NCBI GenBank assembly: GCA_050010195.1
Contig: JBEKLM010000008.1
Span: 7,843 to 71,842, forward strand
Reading direction: 5' to 3'
Length of the DNA stretch: 64,000 nt
DNA from: Verrucomicrobiia bacterium
Lineage (GTDB): Bacteria > Verrucomicrobiota > Verrucomicrobiia > Palsa-1439
The notes under the pieces were generated by a model. It did no database searches. It worked only from the letters and a program-made list of their open reading frames with translations, and had not been told where the DNA came from. How positions within the stretch are numbered: the first letter of the stretch is position 1; the number at the start of each line of letters is the position of its first letter. The translations under genes and the position numbers were made by a program. Below are positions 6,318 to 17,502 of this stretch, piece by piece.

Positions 6318-6506
6318 CACGGTTTCAGGATAGGCAATATTGATGAGTCTCGTGCGACTCTGCCGCGTTGCGACCATCGGCGTGGCCGTGGAAAGGCCAG
6401 TTTCATTGCACTTTCACGACACAGGGATGTTTGCTGCCAGCTTGGTCGCTAGTGCTGTGCGTTTCGTAAATTCTACAAAGGTGACATTAATGTCTCGGAG
6501 ATTGCA

Positions 6507-8519
6507 ATGAAGAGAAAACTCACGTTTTTGATTGTAGGCGCATCCTTTTTGCTCGGTGCGCTGGCGGCGCAGGCCCAGCAAATCAAGGTGATGGAGTACG
6601 ATGCCTCGCAGGAGATCGGCGCCAACACCAATCCGACACCGCAATCGGCGGCGTTCACACGCGTCATCGCGTACCAGCAACCGGATATCGTCTGCTTCTC
6701 CGAGCTAAATGATGGCAGCTCCGTTTCGCTGGTCACCAGTGGTGTGGTCAACTGGGTGACGAACAATCTGGCTTCGATCTTCGGAACAAAGACCGGCGTC
6801 ACGTTTTGGGTCTACATCGCCAACGTGGGAGATGGATACAATCGCAACGGCGAGATCAGCCGTTATCCGATTGTCAGCGCCACGACGTATAGCGATGCCG
6901 GGGGCGGGTTTGCCAACCTGCGTGGCATGGATTCGATCCAGATCCAGTTGAGCGGAACGAACACGCTCCAGATTTTCCATGCACAACTGAAAGCGGGTGG
7001 CGGCACCCTCGACACGAACAGCAATTGCGAACGAAAGCAGGCGGAGGCCGCGACCGACGCGACCAACATGATGAACTGGGCGAGCACGAACCAGTACCCG
7101 TATATCTGGACCTGTGATTGCAATGAGGACCAGGACCCGCGCGACGCCGGTTACACCGCGCCCTACACCACGCCCGAGTGCCCGGTGTCGAGCACGTATC
7201 ATCCGATCACCACCCTCGAACAGGTGGGCGGGCTGGTTGATTACGCCCCCACCACGCTCGAAACCAATGCGGTCGGTTCATGGCGGACGTGGAGCACGGC
7301 GCAAACGGCTGGTCAGCCGTCCGACATGTTCGATCGCATTCTTGCCGCGACCAACCGGCTCAGCCCCGCGTCCGGGCTGGTGTTCAGCACGTTCGACTGG
7401 GCCGCGCACGGTCTGTACACCAACGCGAGCCCGCAGAATCTCGTTAACGACAGCCTGACGGCGGACGATCACTACGATGTCATGGTGACCTACTCGTTTC
7501 CGACCTCCGGGACGAATTCTGGCGTCAACCCGACCTTGCTCACGGCGAGCGGAAGTCCGGGCGGGCCGTTCACTCCCTCCAGTCAGATCTGCGTGCTGAC
7601 GAACTTCGACACGATCCCGTTGTTTTGGTACGCGACAAACCAAACCAGCTGGTTGAAGGTTTCTTCTCCGGCCGGAAACCTTGGCGCCGGTTGGGGCACA
7701 AACATCACCGCGTCCATTACGGCGGCGGCCAATTCGCTGACAGCGGGGACGTACACGGACACGATTACCTTCAGCAACACGGCTACGGGAGTTTCTCTCC
7801 CAGTGGGTGTGACGCTGACAGTCGGGACACCACCACCCGTGGCGAGTTTTACGGCGAGTCCGACCAACGGCGCGACGCCGTTGACCGTGAGCTTCACGGA
7901 CCACTCGTCCGGTTCGGTGACGGGCTGGGCGTGGGCGTTTGGGGACGGCAACACGTCGATCAGCGAGAACCCGTCGGACATCTACGTGACTCCGGGCACG
8001 TACACGGTGCAGGAGATCGTCAGCGGCCCGGGTGGGTCCAGTACGGACACGGTGGTGAATGTGATCAACGTGTACGACCCGTTCGCGTGGTGGCAACTCC
8101 AGTACTTCGGCAGCACCAACATTAGTGCGAGCACCGCGCCGGGCGGGGATTACACCGGTACCGGTATGAGCAACACCAACAGATTTCTGGCGGGCTTCAA
8201 TCCCACCAACGCGGCGGCGTACCTGCACGTCATCAATGTCGTGGAGTCGGTGGCGGGCAATACAAACGTCGTGGTGACGTATCTTGGGCCCAATGGGGAC
8301 AACACCTATGTGCCGGGGATTGCGTCACGGACGAACGTATTGGATTACATGACCGGCGACGCCAACGGCAACTACACGAATGGCGGCTGGCAGGACACGG
8401 GCCAGACCAATATTCTCAGCGGTGGGAATGGGTCGGGGATTGTCACCAACATGACGGATCCGGCGATCCCGGGCGCCCCGACGAACCGGTACTACCGCGT
8501 GCGCGTGGTGTTGCCGTAA
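6507..8519 (+). CDS. Secreted paralogous protein: EEP-like N-terminal region, PKD domain and the same uncharacterised C-terminal domain
   Basis: Signal peptide. DIVCFSELND (an EEP DIVCLQE-like motif). PKD: PLTVSFTDHSSGSVTGWAWAFGDGNTS. The C-terminal ~125 aa are about 90% identical to the 3801..6317 C-terminus. Confidence 0.8.
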   Translation: MKRKLTFLIVGASFLLGALAAQAQQIKVMEYDASQEIGANTNPTPQSAAFTRVIAYQQPDIVCFSELNDGSSVSLVTSGVVNWVTNNLASIFGTKTGVTFWVYIANVGDGYNRNGEISRYPIVSATTYSDAGGGFANLRGMDSIQIQLSGTNTLQIFHAQLKAGGGTLDTNSNCERKQAEAATDATNMMNWASTNQYPYIWTCDCNEDQDPRDAGYTAPYTTPECPVSSTYHPITTLEQVGGLVDYAPTTLETNAVGSWRTWSTAQTAGQPSDMFDRILAATNRLSPASGLVFSTFDWAAHGLYTNASPQNLVNDSLTADDHYDVMVTYSFPTSGTNSGVNPTLLTASGSPGGPFTPSSQICVLTNFDTIPLFWYATNQTSWLKVSSPAGNLGAGWGTNITASITAAANSLTAGTYTDTITFSNTATGVSLPVGVTLTVGTPPPVASFTASPTNGATPLTVSFTDHSSGSVTGWAWAFGDGNTSISENPSDIYVTPGTYTVQEIVSGPGGSSTDTVVNVINVYDPFAWWQLQYFGSTNISASTAPGGDYTGTGMSNTNRFLAGFNPTNAAAYLHVINVVESVAGNTNVVVTYLGPNGDNTYVPGIASRTNVLDYMTGDANGNYTNGGWQDTGQTNILSGGNGSGIVTNMTDPAIPGAPTNRYYRVRVVLP

Positions 8520-8541
8520 TCGCGTACGGAACCGGCTCGCG

Positions 8542-8583
8542 CTCAACGCTCAACGCTCAACGGGCAACCCGCCACAAGGCGGG
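8542..8583 (+). terminator. Triple ctcaacg direct repeat followed by a GC hairpin (cccgcc acaa ggcggg) downstream of the 6507..8519 gene. This is a terminator-like stem without a clear U-tract
   Basis: Read directly: gctcaacgctcaacgctcaacgggcaacccgccacaaggcggg. Confidence 0.35.
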
Positions 8584-8717
8584 CAAGGGTTCGGGGGCGT
8601 GGCGGGCGGGGTGGTAACCGCGACGAATGCCTTGAATGGATCACTGGCGCGGACCATAGCGTCCCCCGGAGCCTTATTTTTCTTGCCTTAGCGGGTAGCG
8701 CCCGATAGGATGGGCGG

Positions 8718-9398
8718 ATGCTAAAGGGTCGCTTGGCGTACGGGTGGATTTACGTTCTGGCACTGGCCACTGCGGCCACGATTTGGCCTGGGGGAGATGT
8801 TCACGCTGTTGCCACCAATGTAGCCGTGTTCAGCATTGATGTCGTCCTGGGGACGGACACGGTCGAAACGGCCGACGGCACGGTGGTGTTCGCGGAGAGC
8901 GACCTGGCGGTGACGACGGTCATACCCCTGGATCTGGCGCAAGCGATTGCCAGCGATCCGGTCGTTCCTCCCGCGATCCAGGCATCCATCGGGAGTCTGG
9001 TGGGGACGACGGACTATCCGTTCCTGATTGCGGCGGGCAGTCCACCGGCGGAACTGCTCGATCACACGGGCAATGTGGGGACCTTCAGCAATGACGTGTT
9101 CACCATTGTGTCGAATGATTTGACGAGTGTGTCACTGCTGGGTGAGGTGCTCAAGAGCGAATCGATCACTCCGGTGGCGAGTGATAGCTATCAGTTCGAT
9201 GGCATCAATCCGATTACGTCGCAGCAACTGGCTGGGTTCATCGACGTGTATTATTATACCGAATGTCTGCAGGAGTCGGTGCCCGAGCCTGCGACGTGGG
9301 GGTTGGTGGTGGCGGGCGCGGCGGCCCTGATGGTTGCGGCGGCCAGATCTCGGCGACGGAAAGCTGTCGTCGTGGTTGCCGGCCGTCGAACATTCTAG
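8718..9398 (+). CDS. PEP-CTERM sorting-domain protein (exosortase substrate)
   Basis: The C-terminus VPEPATWGLVVAGAAALMVAAARSRRRK is a PEP motif followed by a TM helix and an Arg-rich tail. An N-terminal signal peptide is present. Confidence 0.8.
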   Translation: MLKGRLAYGWIYVLALATAATIWPGGDVHAVATNVAVFSIDVVLGTDTVETADGTVVFAESDLAVTTVIPLDLAQAIASDPVVPPAIQASIGSLVGTTDYPFLIAAGSPPAELLDHTGNVGTFSNDVFTIVSNDLTSVSLLGEVLKSESITPVASDSYQFDGINPITSQQLAGFIDVYYYTECLQESVPEPATWGLVVAGAAALMVAAARSRRRKAVVVVAGRRTF

Positions 9399-9670
9399 CG
9401 CCGAGCGGATCGGTTTCTCCCAGCGCGTGTCCCCTCTGGCTGATTTGTGAATTGTGAGGCGGGGAGGCGGTTGACGCCGTGTCGTCAAGAAGCCGGTCTT
9501 GGAGCCGCAAAACGGGTTTGACAGCAATGCCAGAGAGGATACGATGCTAATCGGTCAAACCAAATACCTCGTGATGGTCGCAGGCGTAGGTCATTTGGGA
9601 AATGTCAGCTAAGTGTTGCCGGTGTCGCAGGCTGGTAGTCGCTATCGAATCAACAAAGGAGGGGTGGCTT

Positions 9671-10384
9671 ATGAAGAAGTCCGTCTTATTGTTTATTGCG
9701 GTCACACTTGGGGGATGGGGTTTCAGCGGCGGCCGGGCTCTGGCCGCGGGAAGCAGCACCAACGCCATGGCGATTTCGATCCAAATCGCGGGCGCCATTC
9801 CCAACGAGGTCGCTGTGACGAACAAGGGGGTTGTCACGACCACGTATTCTTCGACCGCGATCAAACTCGACAACGAGGATCTGCTGAATATGCTGCAGAC
9901 GGAGTTCGCGGTGAGCTTTCCGACCGGCGCGCAATTGGCCTATTATCTGACGGGGGACATCGGGTTTCATGTGCTCGATCCAGAAGGGAATTCCATCCTG
10001 AAGGCGTCAACGAATTCATTAGATAGCAGCTACGTGTTTGCCCTGTCGAATTCCGTGGCCGGGGGAGTGTACGCCGACCTCCTCGTCGGAAAAGCGGCAA
10101 CGATCGAGGCGACGACTAACACCCAGGAGGTGGCCACGGATACGGCACCGGATTACGGGATCTATTATTCCGACAGCCATGGGAATAATTTCCATGTCGA
10201 TGGCCTGCTGGTGTTGACGCTCACTGCGACCCAGACCACGACCAGCCTCGTTTATGATACCGTGTCATTCACGCTCACCGGCCAGGGCGGCGGGAAGTTC
10301 TTTAACCCGGCCGATGGGAAGTACGACACCGGGGTGTTCACCAAGGTCAAAGTGTCCGCGAAAGGCGCCGGGATTATCCAGTAA
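9671..10384 (+). CDS. Secreted hypothetical protein
   Basis: AGGAGG RBS then ATG. Signal peptide MKKSVLLFIAVTLGGWGFSGGRALA. Thr/Ser-rich with no recognised domain. Confidence 0.6.
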   Translation: MKKSVLLFIAVTLGGWGFSGGRALAAGSSTNAMAISIQIAGAIPNEVAVTNKGVVTTTYSSTAIKLDNEDLLNMLQTEFAVSFPTGAQLAYYLTGDIGFHVLDPEGNSILKASTNSLDSSYVFALSNSVAGGVYADLLVGKAATIEATTNTQEVATDTAPDYGIYYSDSHGNNFHVDGLLVLTLTATQTTTSLVYDTVSFTLTGQGGGKFFNPADGKYDTGVFTKVKVSAKGAGIIQ

Positions 10385-10576
10385 ACCGGGCGCGGTCGGG
10401 CGAGAACAGGGAACGGGCATGTTACGGAATTCGCGGACGGGACGCGGGGAGCCCGTCGTCGAACTCGGGACAGGCCACGCCGGAGGCGGGCAAGGCCGGG
10501 CGTGGGAACGTCTGGTCCGGAAATTGTGAGGCGGTGGGCGGGTCGGCGATTGCAGTAGGAGTGGATTTGGCCCCGG

Positions 10577-10596
10577 GGCGTCAAGGCGCTGACGCC
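10577..10596. terminator. Perfect 7-bp-stem hairpin (ggcgtca aggcgc tgacgcc) between convergent genes, immediately 3' of the MTase-fusion gene
   Basis: The inverted repeat was read directly. An adjacent ccccgggg palindrome is also present. Confidence 0.35.
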
Positions 10597-10601
10597 ATCG
10601 A

Positions 10602-12647
10602 TCACTTAGTTTTGTACGGTCCAAGAAATTTGTGGCCGTCGAAGTGCACGAGGTGGTCTGGCGTGTCCGCAATCCACACCTCTGTCTCCCAGGCGATGTC
10701 TGGTGCGAATTTCCTGAACGTCTCTCGGCTGAGAAATGCGGTTACGAAAATCAGTTCAGCCGTGCATTCTCGGCACAGACGTTCCAGTTCGACTAAACGG
10801 AGCGGAGAGATCGGGCCGGAGCTGTGAACCGCCTCTATTAAGAAGAGCCAGTTCTTCTCCTCTGAATAGGCAACAATGTCCGGTAGTTCTCCGTGTTCGA
10901 GTTTAAAGAACTTCAACGAGTCCAACTTTCTTTCGTTGCGGACTAGGTATCTGTTGGCGGCATCACCAACGTAAAGAACCTCGGCGCCAAATCCATACCG
11001 AGGGAGGAACACTTCGATTACTGCCTTTTGCAGAAGATTGTGCTCGCCCGGGCTGAAGTGAAGTGTCTTCCCGTCGGGTAGCTTTACCGGAACAAGCTCA
11101 AGGTTGCGCTCTGCCTTCAGGCGTTCGGCCAGCGTGGGCCTGCCGTCCATAAATTCCTCAATTTCCTCTAGCCAACCATCCTGGCCAAAAAACTTAATAA
11201 TCTCGATGAACTCCGGAGATAGCGAGTACCCGCGTGTTGGATCATTACGCGCAGCGGCTGGTTTATTTGCGCTTGCGATAACAATTCCGGCGACAACGAG
11301 CATTTTTAGGTCTTTACGACGAATATCATCGTAAGAGCCCTTCGAAATCTGTTCTTCGAAATGCTTATTCACATAATCAATGATATCGCGCGATTTCAGC
11401 GTATCTTTGCCCGTCCGCATACGAGCGTTGGGCCAGTCTGCGCTTCGCTTTACGTCGGCAACAGCTAGAAATGCCATCGCCATCCGTTCTAGTTCACGGG
11501 GCTTCAGACCCTCAAGGGGGATGCCCAATTTAGATAGCACGAGCAAGGCTTCATTGAATAATTTTGTCAGCCGTTGACTTTTTCCAGAGGAAGCGACGAA
11601 CTGAGGTGTTTTCATTTCTGAAGACTCCTTAAATTCCAGGGGCAGCGTGAATTGATCTGGCAGATTACGGTAAAGAATCTCAGCGGATTCGAGGCGGCGT
11701 TTTGAGGCTAGGTATGTGCGAATTGCACCCGCCAGATGCCACGCGAAAAGGGGCGGCACGGCGTTGCCCACTTGGTTGAACTGGCTGGTTTCCCCGCCCG
11801 CGAACTGAAATCCGTCAGGAAAGCTTTGCAGCCTAGCCGCCTCGTGGATAAGGATCCTCCGCCGTCGCCCGTCGGGCAGGCGAATTCGATGCATGTCCCC
11901 GGTTGCGCCGGCAAGGTTGCGGCAAGTCAATGTACGCGCGGGCTGATCGGGGTGAAGATCACGCGGGCGGACACAAAAAGAGGCGCGCTCATATTTAGCT
12001 ACGTATTCGTCCATGCTTGGCGTCAGAAACTTGGATTCAGGCGGCGCTTGGGACATAAGCCCGCCCAGGGCTTCGCCAGCCGTTACCTTCGCGGAGCATT
12101 CAATGGGGAATTGAAATTCACCTCGGTGGCCAACAACAATCACCCGCTCTCGGTTCTGCGGAACTCCGAAGTTTACGGCATTGAGGAGGCGCACCTCGAC
12201 AACATAATTGAGTGCGCGCAACGCGGCGATGACTTCATCGAAATACCACCGACTCCCGTAGAGCATCCCGCGAACATTCTCGAACATCCAGATGTCGGGC
12301 TGGACGCGCTTTATAGCGGAGATGAAGATAGGAAACCCGTCACGCGAATCCTTGAGCCCCAATTGGTAACCGCCCACGCTGAAAGGCTGGCACGGCGGTC
12401 CGCCGATTATGACCTTTGCTTGAGGATATATGGTGTCGACTGTGAGAGCGACTTGCTGGCAGTCGCCTTTGAGGTTTCGGTGATACGTATCGCAGGCGTC
12501 GCGATCTTGCTCATACCCCAGCGTCTTGAATCCCTGCGCCTCGAATCCAAGTGCAAGTCCGCCACAACCTGCGAATAGATCGAGAACCAAGGGTGAGCCG
12601 TTCTCCTTCGGCTTCAGCATTGTGTTGATCTTCTCTATGTAGGGCAT
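10602..12647 (-). CDS. DNA (cytosine-5) methyltransferase fused to a ~350-aa C-terminal restriction-endonuclease-like domain (BsuBI/PstI-type by recollection)
   Basis: m5C MTase motifs: I LVLDLFAGCGGLALGF, IV GGPPCQPFSVGG, VI ENVRGM, X FNQVGNAVPP. A further 350 aa follow, containing a PD…EEK element. GC is ~52%, against >60% in flanking genes. The start was chosen at the internal Met (MPYIEKI) to limit overlap with vsr. Confidence 0.75.
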   Translation of the reverse strand: MPYIEKINTMLKPKENGSPLVLDLFAGCGGLALGFEAQGFKTLGYEQDRDACDTYHRNLKGDCQQVALTVDTIYPQAKVIIGGPPCQPFSVGGYQLGLKDSRDGFPIFISAIKRVQPDIWMFENVRGMLYGSRWYFDEVIAALRALNYVVEVRLLNAVNFGVPQNRERVIVVGHRGEFQFPIECSAKVTAGEALGGLMSQAPPESKFLTPSMDEYVAKYERASFCVRPRDLHPDQPARTLTCRNLAGATGDMHRIRLPDGRRRRILIHEAARLQSFPDGFQFAGGETSQFNQVGNAVPPLFAWHLAGAIRTYLASKRRLESAEILYRNLPDQFTLPLEFKESSEMKTPQFVASSGKSQRLTKLFNEALLVLSKLGIPLEGLKPRELERMAMAFLAVADVKRSADWPNARMRTGKDTLKSRDIIDYVNKHFEEQISKGSYDDIRRKDLKMLVVAGIVIASANKPAAARNDPTRGYSLSPEFIEIIKFFGQDGWLEEIEEFMDGRPTLAERLKAERNLELVPVKLPDGKTLHFSPGEHNLLQKAVIEVFLPRYGFGAEVLYVGDAANRYLVRNERKLDSLKFFKLEHGELPDIVAYSEEKNWLFLIEAVHSSGPISPLRLVELERLCRECTAELIFVTAFLSRETFRKFAPDIAWETEVWIADTPDHLVHFDGHKFLGPYKTK

Positions 12648-13066
12648 CGCTTTGGCTTGCTGCCTTTGATGGCCTTCTTCAGGCGTGCAACAACCCGAGA
12701 CTCTCGTTTGAGTGAATGTTCCCATATACGAATGACGCTCCAGCCCTGTCTCCTCAATTTCCGGCTAACGGCACGATCGCGAGTTTGGTTCTTAACAATC
12801 TTATCCTCCCAATACAAGGCATTCTGTCTCGGTCGCTGGAGGTGCGATGAACAACCGTGCCAAAAGCAACCGTCCACGAATACCGCTAGACGGCGACTAG
12901 CGAAGATGAAATCTGGTCTGCCCGGCAGCGCTTGATTTCGTCGCCATCCGGTGATGCCGTTTGCCCGCATGATGGACATCAGTTTCAGCTCGGTGTGCTT
13001 GTTGCCGCTTGAACGAATGGCCGCCATTACATCGGAGCGCTTCCGCTTGGTAAATATGTCAGGCAT
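12635..13066 (-). CDS. vsr: Very-short-patch repair endonuclease Vsr
   Basis: FVDGCFWHGC motif and a ~140-aa Vsr-like sequence. The 3' end overlaps the m5C MTase gene. Confidence 0.9.
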   Translation of the reverse strand: MPDIFTKRKRSDVMAAIRSSGNKHTELKLMSIMRANGITGWRRNQALPGRPDFIFASRRLAVFVDGCFWHGCSSHLQRPRQNALYWEDKIVKNQTRDRAVSRKLRRQGWSVIRIWEHSLKRESRVVARLKKAIKGSKPKRCPT

Positions 13067-13175
13067 ACGCTTTTTCGAGCTTAACCAGACAGGGAATTTT
13101 CCACAAGTTTACGGGTAGGAGACGGGGTTCAAAAGTCAGGAGACTGAAAGCAATCTCGGGTGTAAAATTGCTCTC

Positions 13176-13300
13176 ATGTGCGGTCGATTTACGTTGGCGA
13201 AAGAGCTTCGCGTAGTCGCGGCGCGATTCGGCGTTAATTGCGGCCACGGATACGACGAGGCCGCGTCTCGCTACAGTCGCAGCTCGGCTATCCCAGCGAA
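13176..13300 (+). pseudogene. Stub of an SOS-response-associated peptidase (SRAP/YedK) gene
   Basis: Translation MCGRFTLAKELRVVAARFGV matches the invariant SRAP N-terminus (MCGRF…), then degenerates into GC-rich low-complexity sequence. Confidence 0.45.
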
Positions 13301-13760
13301 CGGGTTCCATGGGGCGGCGGTGGAGGCGGGGGGCTTTCGGCTGGTGACAGCCGACGCTACAAGGACGACGGCGGACGGCGCGCTGGGCCAGCACGCCCTA
13401 CCGGGGGCAAAGGCGGCGGGGTACACGAAGGACGCGAAGTAGACACGAATCGCACGAAGGTCAAGGGGCGGAAGGCGAGGCGGACGGCGCGCTCCAAAAG
13501 AGGGCAAGAGAAGCGCAGGCTAAAGCCGTGCGGCTACCGGGGACGGCACGCCGACAGAGCGGCGTGGCTACAGGGACGGGGGACGGACCGCGGTCGACGC
13601 CCGCGGCTACAACGGGCGGGGCGGAAGGGCGGCGGGCGTGATAACGACGGCGGCTGGATACCCTCATCGGATTCGGGCATCGAGCCCTACAATGCGGCGG
13701 CGAGAAGCGGCCACGACGAAGCGTGGCCCGAACGGTGCTACCGGGCGCGTTGACACCATA
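13300..13760. repeat. GC-rich degenerate repeat tract (GCTACNNGGRCG-like units and G-runs such as gggcggggcggaagg)
   Basis: gctacaaggacg, gctaccggggacg, gctacagggacg and gctacaacgggcg recur every ~32-40 bp. Every ORF here is low-complexity G/R-rich. Confidence 0.5.
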
Positions 13761-13776
13761 GCGGGGGGCGATTACG

Positions 13777-14430
13777 ATGAGCGCGGGCATGAGCGAACTG
13801 TGGAAAGATCTGCGGAATTCTTTTTTCGCGGGGTTGCTGGTGGTGGTGCCGGTGGCGGCGTCGGTGCTGATTCTGCTGGCGGTATTCACGTGGGTGACGG
13901 ATTTCATGCTGCCGGATGCATTGCGGCAGCAGATGTTGACGCCGTTGTATCGGATCATCGCGTTGGTGCTGTTCGTGGGGTTCACGATGGGCGTGGGGTG
14001 GATCACGCGTCACATGATCGGGCGGCGGATGGTGTCGGCGACGGAGTCGATGATCGGGCGGGTGCCGTTGTTGAACAAGACGTACGGGTTCATGAAGGAG
14101 ATCAGCCAGACGCTGTTGTCGGGTCGGAAGACGATGTTTCAGCGGGTGGTATTGGTGGAATTTCCGCGGCCGGGGGTGTATTCCGTGGGATTTGTCACGA
14201 GCGAGGCGGGGGGCGAAGCGCAGGCGAAGACGGGTCAGACGGTGATCAATGTGTTTGTGCCGACGACGCCGAATCCGACGAGCGGTTTTCTGATTTTGGT
14301 GCCGCGGGGACAGTTGGTGGACCTGAACATGAGCGTGGCCGAGGGGATGAAGATGGTGATTTCGGGCGGGACGGTGGTGCCTGGGTACACGCCGGTGGGG
14401 CAGGAGACGCTGAAGCTGGGACAGCCGTAG
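13777..14430 (+). CDS. DUF502 family membrane protein
   Basis: N-terminal TM segments with DUF502-like conservation (…FFAGLLVVVPVAASVLIL…VLVEFPRPGVYSVGFVT…). Confidence 0.7.
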   Translation: MSAGMSELWKDLRNSFFAGLLVVVPVAASVLILLAVFTWVTDFMLPDALRQQMLTPLYRIIALVLFVGFTMGVGWITRHMIGRRMVSATESMIGRVPLLNKTYGFMKEISQTLLSGRKTMFQRVVLVEFPRPGVYSVGFVTSEAGGEAQAKTGQTVINVFVPTTPNPTSGFLILVPRGQLVDLNMSVAEGMKMVISGGTVVPGYTPVGQETLKLGQP

Positions 14431-14436
14431 GGGCGC

Positions 14437-15069
14437 ATGGACACCGAGCGCGCTGAGGGGATCGTCTTGCGCCGACAGACGGTGACGGAATCGAGTCTGG
14501 TCGTGACATGGTACACGCGCGAGTTTGGCAAGCTGAAGACGCTGGCCAAGGGTGCGCGACGGATCAAGGGGCCGTTTCAAGGCAAGATCGACCTATTTTA
14601 CCGCGATGAGATTGTGTTTTTGCGCAGTAAACGCAGCGATCTACATTTGTTGCACGATTGTTTCCTAGAGGAAGCCCATCCCCGGCTACGCAAATCGGTC
14701 GAATCATTGACAGCGGCGTCGTATGTGTCTGAGCTGGTGGATCTTGCGACGGAGCAAGAGGACCCGAATGAAGGGATTTACGAGCTGCTGGTAGCGGTTC
14801 TGGAAGCGCTGGAGAACCGACAGGATGGGGTACTGCTGATCTGGTTCGAGTTGCGACTGCTGGCGGCAGCGGGCTGGAAACCGAACTGGGAGGGCAAGAC
14901 GGGAGTGGGGCGGGTGCTACAGTCATTGGCGAATTCGTCGTTGGAAGGCATTGGACGCGTGAAGCTTAGCGGGGAGCAGGTAGAGGCTGGGCGGGAAGCG
15001 TTGTGGCAATTTTGGGACGGGCATCTGGGTCGGCCACCACGGACGCGTGGGTTTTTGGTGGGGAAATAG
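14437..15069 (+). CDS. recO: DNA repair protein RecO
   Basis: N-terminal OB-fold region (GIVLRRQTVTESSLVVTWYTREFGKL…) and a ~210-aa RecO-like size. Confidence 0.8.
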   Translation: MDTERAEGIVLRRQTVTESSLVVTWYTREFGKLKTLAKGARRIKGPFQGKIDLFYRDEIVFLRSKRSDLHLLHDCFLEEAHPRLRKSVESLTAASYVSELVDLATEQEDPNEGIYELLVAVLEALENRQDGVLLIWFELRLLAAAGWKPNWEGKTGVGRVLQSLANSSLEGIGRVKLSGEQVEAGREALWQFWDGHLGRPPRTRGFLVGK

Positions 15070-15073
15070 GCAA

Positions 15074-15102
15074 TTGACGTAGACGGGACGGCTTGATATA
15101 AT
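15074..15102 (+). promoter_or_regulatory. Near-consensus sigma70 promoter TTGACG-17-TATAAT upstream of the MotA-like gene
   Basis: Read directly: ttgacg tagacgggacggcttga tataat. Confidence 0.45.
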
Positions 15103-15139
15103 AAGGGCTGTAGGGTAACTGGCCATCTTGGGCGTGAGA

Positions 15140-15155
15140 CTGCATGAAAATGCAG
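15140..15155. promoter_or_regulatory. Perfect 16-bp palindrome ctgcatgaaaatgcag between that promoter and the MotA-like start codon (operator candidate)
   Basis: Inverted repeat CTGCAT-gaaa-ATGCAG read directly. Confidence 0.35.
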
Positions 15156-15201
15156 GAAAGGAAGGTTATTCCCTACAAAGTAAGCACGAAAATCGCTTGT
15201 C

Positions 15202-16944
15202 ATGAAGCAGGCGCGCGAGCGAGCCAACCAAACGATTATTCAACGAGGAGTAAATGACGCCATGGCGAATCAAGTAGTAGCATTCCCTGCCCACGAAAGG
15301 CCCCAGACCGAAATCAGCACCATCCAGATGGTCGGTATAGCCATTGTGATCACGCTGGGGGTATTTGGGATCGCGTATGTGGTCGGTGGGTTCCCGAAAG
15401 ACCTGTTTATGGGCCGGGACAAGATTCTCCCTGACCGGGTTTTTTTCCAAAGCTTGATTACGCTTGTGTGGGCGCTGTCGATGGCCAACGTCGTGTTGAA
15501 GATGGTGCGACTCAACAAAGAGCGGGCGGCGCTTGAGGAAGGCAGCGTGCCGGAGAATCTCGACATGAGCGATAAGGATGCGTTGATCGTGCAGTATGAG
15601 CGGATCAAGTTGCGCCCGGCGATGACGGAGAGCCTGGGGTTGACACGCATCGCGCGCGTGTTGGCGATGTGGATTAACACCGATGATTTCGAGCGCACGG
15701 CGCAGTACGCGCGTGAGCAAGCCGACCTCGACGCGGCCGAGTCCGATGCGACGTTTCGGCGTATCCGGTTGTTCATTTGGGCAATGCCGCTGCTGGGGTT
15801 CGTCGGTACCGTATACGGCGTGGCCAACGGGATCAGCGGTTTCTCGGGTTTTCTGCATCAGGCGAATGTGTCGATGGATCAAATCAAGGCGGCGATTGGT
15901 GACATCACGACCGGACTGGCGGTGGCGTTTATGTGTACGCTGCTGGGTCTGTTCACGGCCGGGTTGGCGGCGTTTCCCAATTTGATGGCGGAACGCCGGG
16001 AAGAGAAGATGCTGGCGGAGATCGAGGAACTGGTGGAGGACCGGCTGCTGTCGCGGATGCCATCGTCGGCCGGGGAAGAATCGAAGAGATTTCCCGTGGA
16101 ACAGATGGTGGCGGCGATCCGCGAAGGGATGGACGGACTGCAGACCCAATCGAAATTCCCCGTGGAGGAATTGGCGCAGGCCATCGACGCGGGGTTCCGG
16201 CGGTTGCCGAATCCGGATCGGTATGAAGAAGTGTTTTCCCGCGCGATCGCGAAGGCCGGCGATGTCATCAACCAGAAGTACGATGAATTCGCCGAGAATT
16301 ACGAACGACGCATTGGCGAACTGGGTTCCCAGCTCGGCGGCAAGCTGGAGGGCGTGGCCAGCAGCTTCAATAGCGGGACGCACCGGATCGTGTCCGAGTT
16401 GACCAAGACCCAGGAGCGCAACCTGGAGATTTACTCCAAGAACGAGCAGAAACTGGCGGAGAAGTTCGAGGAACTGACGGAACAATTGACCACCATCGCC
16501 AAGGAACAATCCGAGCAGTTCGGCGAAGCCCACGAAAATTACGTCGAGGCGATCCAGGAGTTGGACAAGAAGGAAATCGCGCGATTCGAGAAGATGGTCC
16601 AGGAGTTCAGCCAGCTCTCGGTACGGTTGGCCGACTCCTTCAAGCAGGCGGTCATGACGCTGGAGAATGCGTCCACGCGGTACAGTGAACGCATCCAGCA
16701 GTCGGTCGAGTCGTTGAACGAGCAACTGGAGAAAGTCACCCAGTTGGGCGCGGAGATCGACAAGGTGCTGCGGACCACACAGGCGATGGAGACGACGTTG
16801 CGTCAGGTGGGCAATTCGGATGAATTCCGCCAGACCCTGGCCAATTTGCGCAGTCACCTGAACACGAGCGATGAGTTGCTCAAGCAACTGTCGCGTCCGC
16901 GCAAGGTGATCTTCCAGGAAGCCCGGGGCGACGACAGCATGTAG
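15202..16944 (+). CDS. MotA/TolQ/ExbB-family proton-channel protein with a ~300-aa C-terminal coiled-coil tail
   Basis: Family signature (MPLLGFVGTVYGVANGISGF…IGDITTGLAVAFMCTLLGLFTAGLAAFPNLMAERR). This is followed by a long E/K/Q-rich helical region. Confidence 0.8.
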   Translation: MKQARERANQTIIQRGVNDAMANQVVAFPAHERPQTEISTIQMVGIAIVITLGVFGIAYVVGGFPKDLFMGRDKILPDRVFFQSLITLVWALSMANVVLKMVRLNKERAALEEGSVPENLDMSDKDALIVQYERIKLRPAMTESLGLTRIARVLAMWINTDDFERTAQYAREQADLDAAESDATFRRIRLFIWAMPLLGFVGTVYGVANGISGFSGFLHQANVSMDQIKAAIGDITTGLAVAFMCTLLGLFTAGLAAFPNLMAERREEKMLAEIEELVEDRLLSRMPSSAGEESKRFPVEQMVAAIREGMDGLQTQSKFPVEELAQAIDAGFRRLPNPDRYEEVFSRAIAKAGDVINQKYDEFAENYERRIGELGSQLGGKLEGVASSFNSGTHRIVSELTKTQERNLEIYSKNEQKLAEKFEELTEQLTTIAKEQSEQFGEAHENYVEAIQELDKKEIARFEKMVQEFSQLSVRLADSFKQAVMTLENASTRYSERIQQSVESLNEQLEKVTQLGAEIDKVLRTTQAMETTLRQVGNSDEFRQTLANLRSHLNTSDELLKQLSRPRKVIFQEARGDDSM

Positions 16945-16992
16945 GGTGAAAGCGTGCGCCGCACGACTCGATAATTTGGAGGCGACAACCTT

Positions 16993-17502
16993 ATGGCGCG
17001 ACGGAAACCTTACGAGAAGATCGACATCAATGTCGAACCGTTTCTGTCCATCATGGCGATCGTGCTAAAGTTGATCTCCTTGATTTTGGTGGTCATCGTC
17101 ATGCGCATCGCCATGAATCCCAATGCCAAACGGATTCCCACCTTCCCCGGATTATACAGCGGCCACGGCAATGAAATGAATCCCAAGATTCCTTCGTACA
17201 TCGATTGCCATCCGGATGGGTTGACGTTGTATTCCAGCGACGTCCCGGCTGGTGCGCAGGTACACTGGGACGATTTGCAGCGGCCGGATAATGCCGTGAA
17301 CCAACTTCTCGATAAAGTGCAGCAGCACAAGGACGACGAGTATATCGTTGTGATGGTGCGACCCTCGTCGCTGAAGTTTTACCGCACGGTACGCAATCTG
17401 ATCGAGAAACGTCCGATCGATGTGGGCTACGATGCGATTGATGCCAATTTTAAGGTCGACTGGGACGCGGCAGAGAAGGCGCTAGCCATTTCCCCGGACT
17501 GA
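16993..17502 (+). CDS. ExbD/TolR-like single-TM protein (weak similarity)
   Basis: MARRK… cytoplasmic N-terminus, one TM helix, then a periplasmic domain. The position directly after the MotA-like gene fits. Confidence 0.5.
   Translation: MARRKPYEKIDINVEPFLSIMAIVLKLISLILVVIVMRIAMNPNAKRIPTFPGLYSGHGNEMNPKIPSYIDCHPDGLTLYSSDVPAGAQVHWDDLQRPDNAVNQLLDKVQQHKDDEYIVVMVRPSSLKFYRTVRNLIEKRPIDVGYDAIDANFKVDWDAAEKALAISPD

Follow-up and report, generated by a model that had tools for sequence, protein, structure and literature searches.

PstI and BsuBI are the classic restriction-modification (R-M) systems for the site CTGCAG, and SdaI, an enzyme of the same family, reads CCTGCAGG. In these systems the genes of the methyltransferase (MTase; M) and the restriction endonuclease (REase; R) lie head to tail, the partner MTases are N6-adenine enzymes, and the REase combines an N-terminal winged helix-turn-helix (wHTH) recognition domain with C-terminal catalysis of the PD-(D/E)xK type. 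Here, we describe a locus of a Verrucomicrobiia bacterium, contained in a stretch of 64,000 nucleotides of contig JBEKLM010000008.1 (hereafter the window), at which a REase of this family, with the same two-part build and in the same head-to-tail order, is joined in a single polypeptide to an MTase of the 5-methylcytosine (m5C) class. Apart from the class of its MTase, the window protein differs from PstI, BsuBI and SdaI in its recognition helix and in the residue after the catalytic E-x-V, which is K in SdaI, T in PstI-like enzymes and H in the window REase.

Several described systems share parts of this arrangement. The AplI system of Arthrospira (Limnospira) platensis NIES-39 (R.AplI, T2AP_LIMP3/D4ZX34) likewise has a C5-MTase directly upstream of a BsuBI/PstI-family REase, and its MTase resembles the window MTase half (52% identity) in having the same target recognition domain (TRD) and a similar C-terminal tail. 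In contrast to the window, AplI consists of two separate proteins, its locus in Limnospira has no adjacent Vsr gene, and R.AplI belongs to the PstI-like branch (helix NTRENIR, EAVKTGG) rather than to the SYDD/EAVH branch of the window REase, the two being non-orthologous at 24% identity. Restriction and modification domains also share one polypeptide in Type IIC/IIG enzymes such as MmeI, BcgI, Eco57I and BtgZI. The characterised Type IIC enzymes carry an N-terminal nuclease, an N6-methyladenine (m6A) MTase of the gamma class (alpha class in BtgZI) and one shared specificity module, and cleave outside their site (PMC4081073, PMC3039593). The window protein instead runs from M to R, has an m5C MTase, and possesses a TRD as well as a separate wHTH, as expected for the simple fusion of a Type IIP pair. 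Such a fusion was engineered by Mokrishcheva et al. (2011): with the stop and start codons between the adjacent genes of an m5C MTase and a Type IIP REase removed, they obtained the fully bifunctional RM.Eco29kI; their paper lists m6A examples only and expects head-to-tail Type II pairs to have given rise to such fusions in nature as well, with BsuBI among the candidates (PMC3039593). In addition to being artificial, RM.Eco29kI differs from the window protein in its R-M order and its GIY-YIG nuclease. On the m6A side of the PstI family, REases fused C-terminally to their cognate MTase are found as in the window (829-886 aa; PADLOC PDLC03359), often with the old R methionine kept, and the MTase is of the N6-adenine type (Eco57I/N6_Mtase) where that of the window is m5C; we know of no characterised member. 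One of these fusions corresponds to the REBASE-style entry McoGP6ORF996P (CTGCAG, m6A) (PMC11033074). A literature search that excluded REBASE and most subscription journals found no characterised natural fusion of an m5C MTase to a Type IIP REase, and an earlier description may exist.

The features of the fused gene and of the vsr gene upstream of it are listed below.

10602..12647, minus strand: fused M-R gene, 681 aa, with an ATG start as in homologues
11721..12587, minus strand: C5-cytosine DNA methyltransferase domain (Pfam, NCBIfam, invariant columns, TRD conservation)
11577..11666, minus strand: flexible linker, residues ~328-357 of 681 (AlphaFold2 model, comparison with split loci)
11127..11564, minus strand: N-terminal wHTH DNA-recognition domain of the REase, BsuBI_PstI_RE_N (Pfam, SdaI alignment)
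11304-11339, minus strand: putative recognition helix GSYDDIRRKDLK, specific to the subfamily
10635..11093, minus strand: catalytic PD-(D/E)xK-type domain of the REase, BsuBI_PstI_RE (Pfam; invariant PD, E-A-V-H and AWETE columns)
10878-10880, 10833-10835 and 10824-10826, minus strand: REase residues D590, E605 and H608
12635..13066, minus strand: vsr, very-short-patch T:G mismatch endonuclease, 143 aa (Pfam, NCBIfam, PADLOC)

The longest possible open reading frame (ORF) extends from 10602 to 12725 on the minus strand and encodes 707 aa. Because homologues begin at Met27 of this frame, as does a 100%-identical protein of 681 aa from the independent ENA contig L001, we place the gene at 10602..12647. 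Its N-terminal half was identified as an MTase by profile and structure searches: Pfam DNA_methylase matched residues 47-335 (707-aa numbering) at 5e-54, PF00145 scored 184 bits against a cutoff of 22 and the NCBIfam model TIGR00675 (dcm) 163 bits against a cutoff of 100.65, and a search of solved structures matched this half to M.HaeIII and M.HhaI. The motifs occur in canonical order (I FAGCGG, IV GGPPCQPFS, VI FENVRG, VIII PQNRER, IX REAARLQSFPD, X GNAVPP), with the putative catalytic Cys86 in motif IV (GPPCQPF) at 12390-12392 and a TRD of the sequence PARTLTCRNLAGATGDMHRIRLPDGRRRR.

An earlier note on this DNA had proposed a Dcm-like m5C MTase fused in frame, within one ORF of 681-707 aa, to a REase-like domain taken to be BsuBI/PstI-type. 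The order of the Pfam domains and the dcm score confirm the fusion, and the C-terminal half indeed belongs to this nuclease family and not to another one. Both BsuBI/PstI domains are full-length and above the Pfam cutoff, namely BsuBI_PstI_RE_N (PF17728; residues 388-533 of the 707-aa frame, 3e-28, 98.8 bits, profile positions 2-139 of 140) and BsuBI_PstI_RE (PF06616; residues 545-697, 5e-61, 205 bits, positions 1-153 of 154), and the structure of the SdaI endonuclease (2ixs) matched the C-terminal ~300 residues (410-705) with an E-value of 1.7e-50. The catalytic element had been misplaced: neither Glu of the PD…EEK named in that note is conserved in the family, though its Lys often is, whereas the invariant residues are PD590 and E605, the latter followed by A-V-H608. 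In an AlphaFold2 model built from a 63-sequence alignment, the domains were confident (mean predicted local distance difference test, pLDDT, 83; predicted template modelling score, pTM, 0.51), residues 328-357 lacked secondary structure and pLDDT fell below 50 at 332-343; as modelled, the two halves resemble separate modules connected by a flexible tether. Existing annotations name one half each, NCBI calling the entire protein a 'BsuBI/PstI family type II restriction endonuclease' and JGI a cytosine methyltransferase only.

The same three domains were found together in more than 120 protein clusters at 60-80% identity, drawn from ENA, JGI, NCBI and Logan assemblies and nearly all 680-690 aa long. 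An alignment of 63 of these homologues showed no variation in any MTase motif, in PD590 and E605 or in AWETE, and PD590, E605 and W653-E-T-E656 remain invariant when fused, split, m6A-linked and SdaI sequences are compared. Since synonymous sites were saturated against five relatives (proportion of synonymous differences, pS, 0.8-0.97), dN/dS could not be computed and the proportion of non-synonymous differences (pN) is given in its place; it amounted to 0.13-0.25 for the MTase, 0.10-0.31 for the wHTH and 0.12-0.24 for the catalytic domain. Every domain is thus under strong purifying selection, and the nuclease half is constrained as much as the methylase half.

We scanned one genome per species and measured ORF continuity at the ~65 loci that encode both M and R. 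Only 9 were fused (Verrucomicrobiota, Spartobacteria, two Lentisphaeria, one unclassified, Dehalococcoidia, two Acidobacteriota and Humidesulfovibrio), while ~50 consisted of two genes in M-to-R order, usually with an overlapping stop and start. A single in-frame stop codon is all that parts M from R at six loci (L011, L013, L017, L020, L071 and L072). The split form was found in Bacteroidota, Cyanobacteria, Planctomycetota, candidate-phyla-radiation bacteria and a Methanoculleus metagenome-assembled genome, as well as in two strains available in culture, Fibrobacter intestinalis ATCC 43854 and Vibrio sp. Hep-1b-8. Thus, the architecture, called uncommon before, is a minority form of a very common two-gene M-to-R system and is at the same time common in metagenomes. 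At the fused junction, the full ancestral M tail is retained (…AEILYRNLPDQFTLPLEF, compared with …EEILENNLQPNNELTLF followed by the stop in split relatives); ~5 residues later, the ancestral R N-terminus begins (MKTPQF…KLFNEAL, compared with MKQYLSKS…IINEAL). To judge from these junctions, the fusion derives from the widespread two-gene operon, and since fused and split m5C-linked REases form the same subfamily, it left the recognition module unaltered. Neighbour-joining trees of each half, drawn without support values, placed the fused genes in at least two clades with many split lineages between them, which suggests that the fusion arose more than once.

Loss and decay of the nuclease were also seen among these relatives. 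The Verrucomicrobiales locus L018 is split yet lies inside a fused clade, so that either a fission or a copy in decay may be at hand, and at L018, L022, L038, L044, L050, L054 and L057 frameshifted or truncated REase parts stand beside an intact MTase. Filamentous cyanobacteria mostly keep the MTase alone (as at L023, L028, L056 and L060), some with truncated REase remnants fused to it (P0191, 520 aa; P0129, 440 aa; P0127, 360 aa), which looks like decay of R-M systems to orphan methylases. Plasmids yielded only standalone BsuBI/PstI REases linked to m6A MTases, and the full fused protein was seen neither there nor in cultured phages; IMG/VR contigs held only split or MTase-only forms. In a survey of 1.84 billion representative proteins, fusion was recurrent in the PstI-type REase family (m5C fusions P0103 and P0306), with ~18 clusters of 810-886 aa joining an N6-adenine MTase (N6_Mtase/Eco57I) to a complete PstI-type REase. 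Examples of this m6A type are P0311, P0315, P0330, P0380 and P0344 (loci L247-L251), and L247 adjoins a phage-type integrase. The PADLOC model 'MTase_II' (840 positions) spans the REase part as well.

The gene lies on an island whose borders became visible by comparison with a near-identical strain. Scanning metagenomes with the DUF502 protein encoded next to the island retrieved the 142-kb contig L153, which aligned by blastn to window positions 6479-10544 with 99.0% and to 13684-17000 with 99.3% identity; the sequences between these blocks are unrelated. At this site L153 (Ga0326727_10000633) carries a different R-M cassette of 3.85 kb (L153:4055-7907), also with a GC content below that of its flanks and including an ORF6N fragment, whereas L125 and L001 carry the same island as the window. 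The island and the genes of the alternative cassette are as follows.

10545..13683 of the window, no strand: strain-specific island, 3139 bp (blastn of the window against L153; border alignments)
6375-7148 of L153, minus strand: BamHI-family REase
7145-7396 of L153, minus strand: HTH_3 controller protein
5451-6383 of L153, plus strand: first N4/N6 MTase
4110-5429 of L153, minus strand: second N4/N6 MTase

Because near-identical strains carry alternative R-M cassettes at one site, this comparison proves the horizontal exchange that the earlier note had read from composition and flanking sequences, and the island is a recent swap. The compositional contrast itself has the claimed direction and a slightly smaller size, with a GC content of 53.5% for the R-M gene and 53.2% for vsr (~52% had been given) against 60.2% and 58.7% in the flanks (given as >60%). 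We found no convincing flanking direct or inverted repeats, integrase or tRNA at the island, and the likeliest route is replacement of the cassette by homologous recombination in the conserved flanks.

The upstream vsr gene passed the Pfam and NCBIfam cutoffs (PF03852, 3e-21, 75.4 bits against 27; TIGR00632, 108.9 against 97.85) and was recovered by the PADLOC Vsr model (5e-21). Its last 13 nt overlap the start of the R-M gene (ATG at 12647), in line with the overlap noticed before, and because of this the two genes are predicted to form a translationally coupled operon. Alignment to E. coli Vsr (1cw0) showed conservation of LPGRPDF, which includes the catalytic Asp, and of GCFWH, the segment associated with zinc ligands in the E. 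coli enzyme; the His/Cys pattern after GCFWH differs (GCSSH versus HHHC), the position of E. coli Cys117 being a His. Contrary to the idea of a 'dedicated' Vsr, only ~10 of the 65 loci have a Vsr within the fetched flanks, mostly downstream of R. On the contig of the closest relative (R-M protein 80% identical), Vsr is located downstream, in convergent orientation, and is only 59% identical, and other close relatives of the window system have none. Vsr is hence an occasional and variably placed accessory and not a fixed partner; its repeated independent recruitment would fit an active m5C methylase nearby and lends indirect support to one. A terminator-like hairpin with a T-run lies just upstream of vsr (13140-13157, minus strand) and could insulate the cassette from read-through.

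The likely target was approached through the partners of the MTase. Plasmid standalone BsuBI/PstI REases adjoin N6-adenine MTases, the classic arrangement, whereas the m5C-MTase-linked REases, fused or split, share an invariant wHTH helix (G/S)SYDD(I/V)RR and a catalytic E-A-V-H-S. The corresponding elements are N(S/T)RETxR(R/K) and E-(A/S)-V-T-S-(H/V) in PstI-like enzymes and GSREDFRKK and E-A-V-K in SdaI. By these motifs, the nuclease half belongs to a distinct and apparently uncharacterised subfamily; identity values against m6A-type REases failed to resolve the REase subfamilies. Three loci pair a homologue of the m5C MTase with a REase of the PstI/AplI type (helix NTRET, NSRES or NTRES), and the MTases of two of them, L017 and L064, are ~60% identical to that of the window (with TRD conservation checked), compared with 28% for L078. 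Searching with the L017 REase led to the cluster that contains the characterised AplI (T2AP_LIMP3, BAI92109.1) of Arthrospira/Limnospira platensis, which was not reached with a Symploca MTase query or through unnamed clusters. In the Limnospira genome, the REase of the AplI cluster starts 2 nt downstream of a 345-aa C5-MTase, and the identity of this MTase to the window MTase half extends over 342 residues (E 3e-119), covering the TRD (…PRTLTCRNLSGATSDMLRLLLPDGRRRR…) and the C-terminal tail. AplI cleaves CTGCAG (PMC5741684, PMC13458397). The TRD is almost invariant across the whole MTase family. M.AplI is said to methylate C4 of CTGCAG (attributed to Shiraishi & Tabuse 2013). Since REases of both subtypes are countered by a single MTase family that has a single TRD, the SYDD-type nuclease likely reads CTGCAG as well, and CTGCAG, or a site containing it, is most probably the target of the fused enzyme.

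Genome composition was compared with this prediction using observed/expected ratios (O/E) of CTGCAG under a per-locus maximal-order Markov model and supported it in part. The ratio was 0.46 in 39 split-system loci (36 of them below expectation) and 0.17 in MTase-only loci, compared with 0.75 in control loci with unrelated MTases. A candidate deamination footprint, an excess of TTGCAG, was discarded since it vanished against ATGCAG and GTGCAG under a lower-order model. MTase-only cyanobacterial loci showed a weak excess of CTGTAG (1.59), which fits C4 methylation and is not convincing.

Taken together, we consider it probable that the island is a horizontally exchanged Type II R-M cassette in which an AplI-like two-gene system was joined by loss of the M stop codon. 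That loss would have produced the single-chain 681-aa product with two independent modules on a flexible linker of ~30 residues. The N-terminal C5-MTase, using its own TRD, would methylate host DNA, most probably at CTGCAG, and the C-terminal module, with its own wHTH and PD-(D/E)xK domain, would dimerise and cut the same site wherever incoming DNA carries it unmethylated. Every nuclease chain would be made with its own methylase, and cutting would need dimers whereas methylation would work as a monomer; for these reasons, on arrival of the cassette in a new cell, modification should come before restriction. An assembly-timing argument of this kind has been put forward for single-chain R-M enzymes (PMC12707154). 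The Vsr, coupled upstream, would repair the T:G mismatches that arise from deamination of 5-methylcytosine. Within this account, the architecture and its conservation, the selection acting on it, its descent from the split system, the homology to the AplI-linked MTase and the island borders with the cassette swap are shown by the present data, and both enzymatic activities, CTGCAG as the target and the order of modification and restriction are inferred.

A number of observations weigh against this account. The recognition helix SYDDIRRKDL is unlike that of PstI-like enzymes, AplI and SdaI, whose SRE(T/D)xR(R/K) is not present in the window REase (GSYDDIRRKDLK in its place), so that the target could differ. 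Identity of the REase half amounts to just 24% with AplI itself and to 33-43% with PstI-like enzymes. The position of SdaI K251 is a His here and a Thr in PstI-like enzymes, and because the residue after E-x-V varies within the family, the third catalytic residue cannot be named and the triad is not assignable. CTGCAG is not avoided in fused carriers (O/E 0.87, 12 loci) or in the window (14 observed, 16 expected). Moreover, no sigma-70-like promoter was found upstream of vsr. The missing avoidance could be explained by recent acquisition, and in the window genome the recent cassette swap offers a simple reason for it; weak or absent restriction could explain it too.

The proposed mechanism would be refined, rather than replaced, if the gene gave two products, the M-R fusion and a free 337-aa REase translated from an internal start at the junction. 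Two elements of the window sequence are relevant here.

11625..11630, minus strand: internal Shine-Dalgarno (SD)-like AAGGAG, which precedes the retained ancestral start codon of R by 9 nt
11613..11615, minus strand: internal ATG, Met345 of 681, which aligns with the R start of two-gene relatives and is a possible start of the 337-aa REase

The predicted anti-SD pairing at ATG345 (-8.7 kcal/mol) ranks first among the 21 in-frame ATG/GTG codons. Counting the window gene, the junction start has this rank in 6 of 12 fused genes, which represent both fused clades (-8.7 to -11.6 kcal/mol; the other five, L008, L009, L010, L012 and L016, at -8.8 to -11.6 kcal/mol), while only 3.2% of 253 background codons reached -8 kcal/mol. 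The SD motif persists even though the encoded junction residues differ (KESSEM, RKEEYAM, QEESKIV, PKEKYM). At most split loci, R is not preceded by an SD and depends on the stop/start overlap instead. In the m6A-type fusions, a Met is found at the old R start in 4 of 5 and a first-ranked SD in 2 of 5. With two products the locus would still behave like a two-component system, M carrying a tethered R domain that could dimerise with free R. Conversely, the internal SD could be left over from the ancestral ribosome-binding site in SD-using phyla; the junction start is missing in L007, L014 and L015 and its pairing is weak in L006, L086 and L087; the fused lineages are not independent samples and the junction codon was picked by eye within a few residues; and the starts of vsr and the R-M gene in the window themselves lack a clear SD. 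We hold the two-product reading only tentatively, as somewhat the less probable course. Doubtful, and a little more so, is the wider proposal that M-R joining among PstI-family systems is no accident but a design selected repeatedly, with at least three origins (two m5C clades and the m6A branch), in which a functional internal ribosome-binding site yields M-R plus free R and the tethered R regulates dimer formation. If true, tethered R would be a built-in regulator, for example through M-R:R heterodimers or by holding active R2 back until M accumulates, and would represent a previously undescribed timing of restriction after horizontal transfer that needs no controller protein.

Whether or not free R is made, the nuclease half might read something other than plain CTGCAG, such as the longer SdaI site or a related palindrome that the methylase still covers. 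Its subfamily-specific helix, the ability of the BsuBI/PstI fold to read an 8-bp site, as SdaI (2ixs) demonstrates, and the lack of CTGCAG avoidance in fused carriers all point in this direction. Set against them is the pairing of the same MTase family, with a near-identical TRD, with both REase subtypes, including the AplI type that cuts CTGCAG, as well as the depletion of CTGCAG in carriers of the split SYDD-type system; we regard a divergent target as rather unlikely. Much less credible is a catalytically dead nuclease that merely adds a DNA-binding module to an effectively orphan methylase with Vsr. It would account for the absent target avoidance, for the His in place of the SdaI Lys and for the many cyanobacterial relatives that lost or truncated the REase while keeping the MTase. 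But E-A-V-H also occurs in the free-standing R of split systems, for which inactivity would make no sense, PD590, E605 and AWETE are invariant with a catalytic-domain pN as low as that of the MTase, and where the REase is dispensable it was seen to decay rather than to stay conserved at full length. Finally, an assembly or sequencing artefact that merged two genes, suggested by the two-gene state of most relatives, some with one stop codon between M and R, can be dismissed, as the identical fused ORF recurs on the independent contigs L001 (ENA) and L125 (JGI) and fused clusters of ~681 aa come from varied sources; the reservation that the ORF might be two genes separated by a frameshift or stop falls with it.

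A horizontally exchanged fusion of an AplI-like pair would be of interest mainly to restriction enzymologists, the biological role being ordinary. The fused family, abundant in uncultured Verrucomicrobiota, Lentisphaerota, Acidobacteriota and Chloroflexota, would be the natural counterpart that the authors of RM.Eco29kI predicted and a natural experiment on how gene fusion bears on the control of a toxic nuclease. Two REase subtypes blocked by one m5C mark could aid in understanding how the wHTH reads CTGCAG, and the island offers a clean case of allelic R-M cassette replacement between near-identical strains. Should the activity prove ordinary, the value would be limited to a possible new PstI isoschizomer and better annotation.

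The remaining part of the island consists of two features.

13176..13442, plus strand: 88-aa ORF beginning MCGRFTL..., with no significant family match, also called as a gene on L001
13443..13683, no strand: GC-rich (64-70%) non-coding remainder of the island with short imperfect repeats only

The 88-aa ORF had been taken for an SRAP stub; it has no Pfam match even at an E-value of 0.05, only its first ~20 residues are SRAP-like by eye, and it is probably a decayed fragment. With a PEP-CTERM gene on one side and the DUF502-recO genes on the other, the site is a hot spot of R-M exchange. L088, L092 and L095, relatives at ~82% identity, lack the entire interval 8556-13743, the gene of a 670-aa secreted protein directly meeting the DUF502 gene, and the secreted-protein genes at 8718-9398 (PEP-CTERM) and 9602-10384 (no Pfam match) are further lineage-specific insertions at the island site. 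A ~30-nt motif (AATTGTGAGGCGGGG...) is repeated after each of these two genes, at 9442-9476 and 10514-10548, and the end of its second copy falls on the left border of the island. Among well-sampled hexamer palindromes, the most under-represented in the 64-kb window were CAGCTG (2 versus 10 expected) and CTCGAG (9 versus 22.7 expected), a scarcity that hints at other present or past R-M pressures on PvuII- and XhoI-type sites in this genome.

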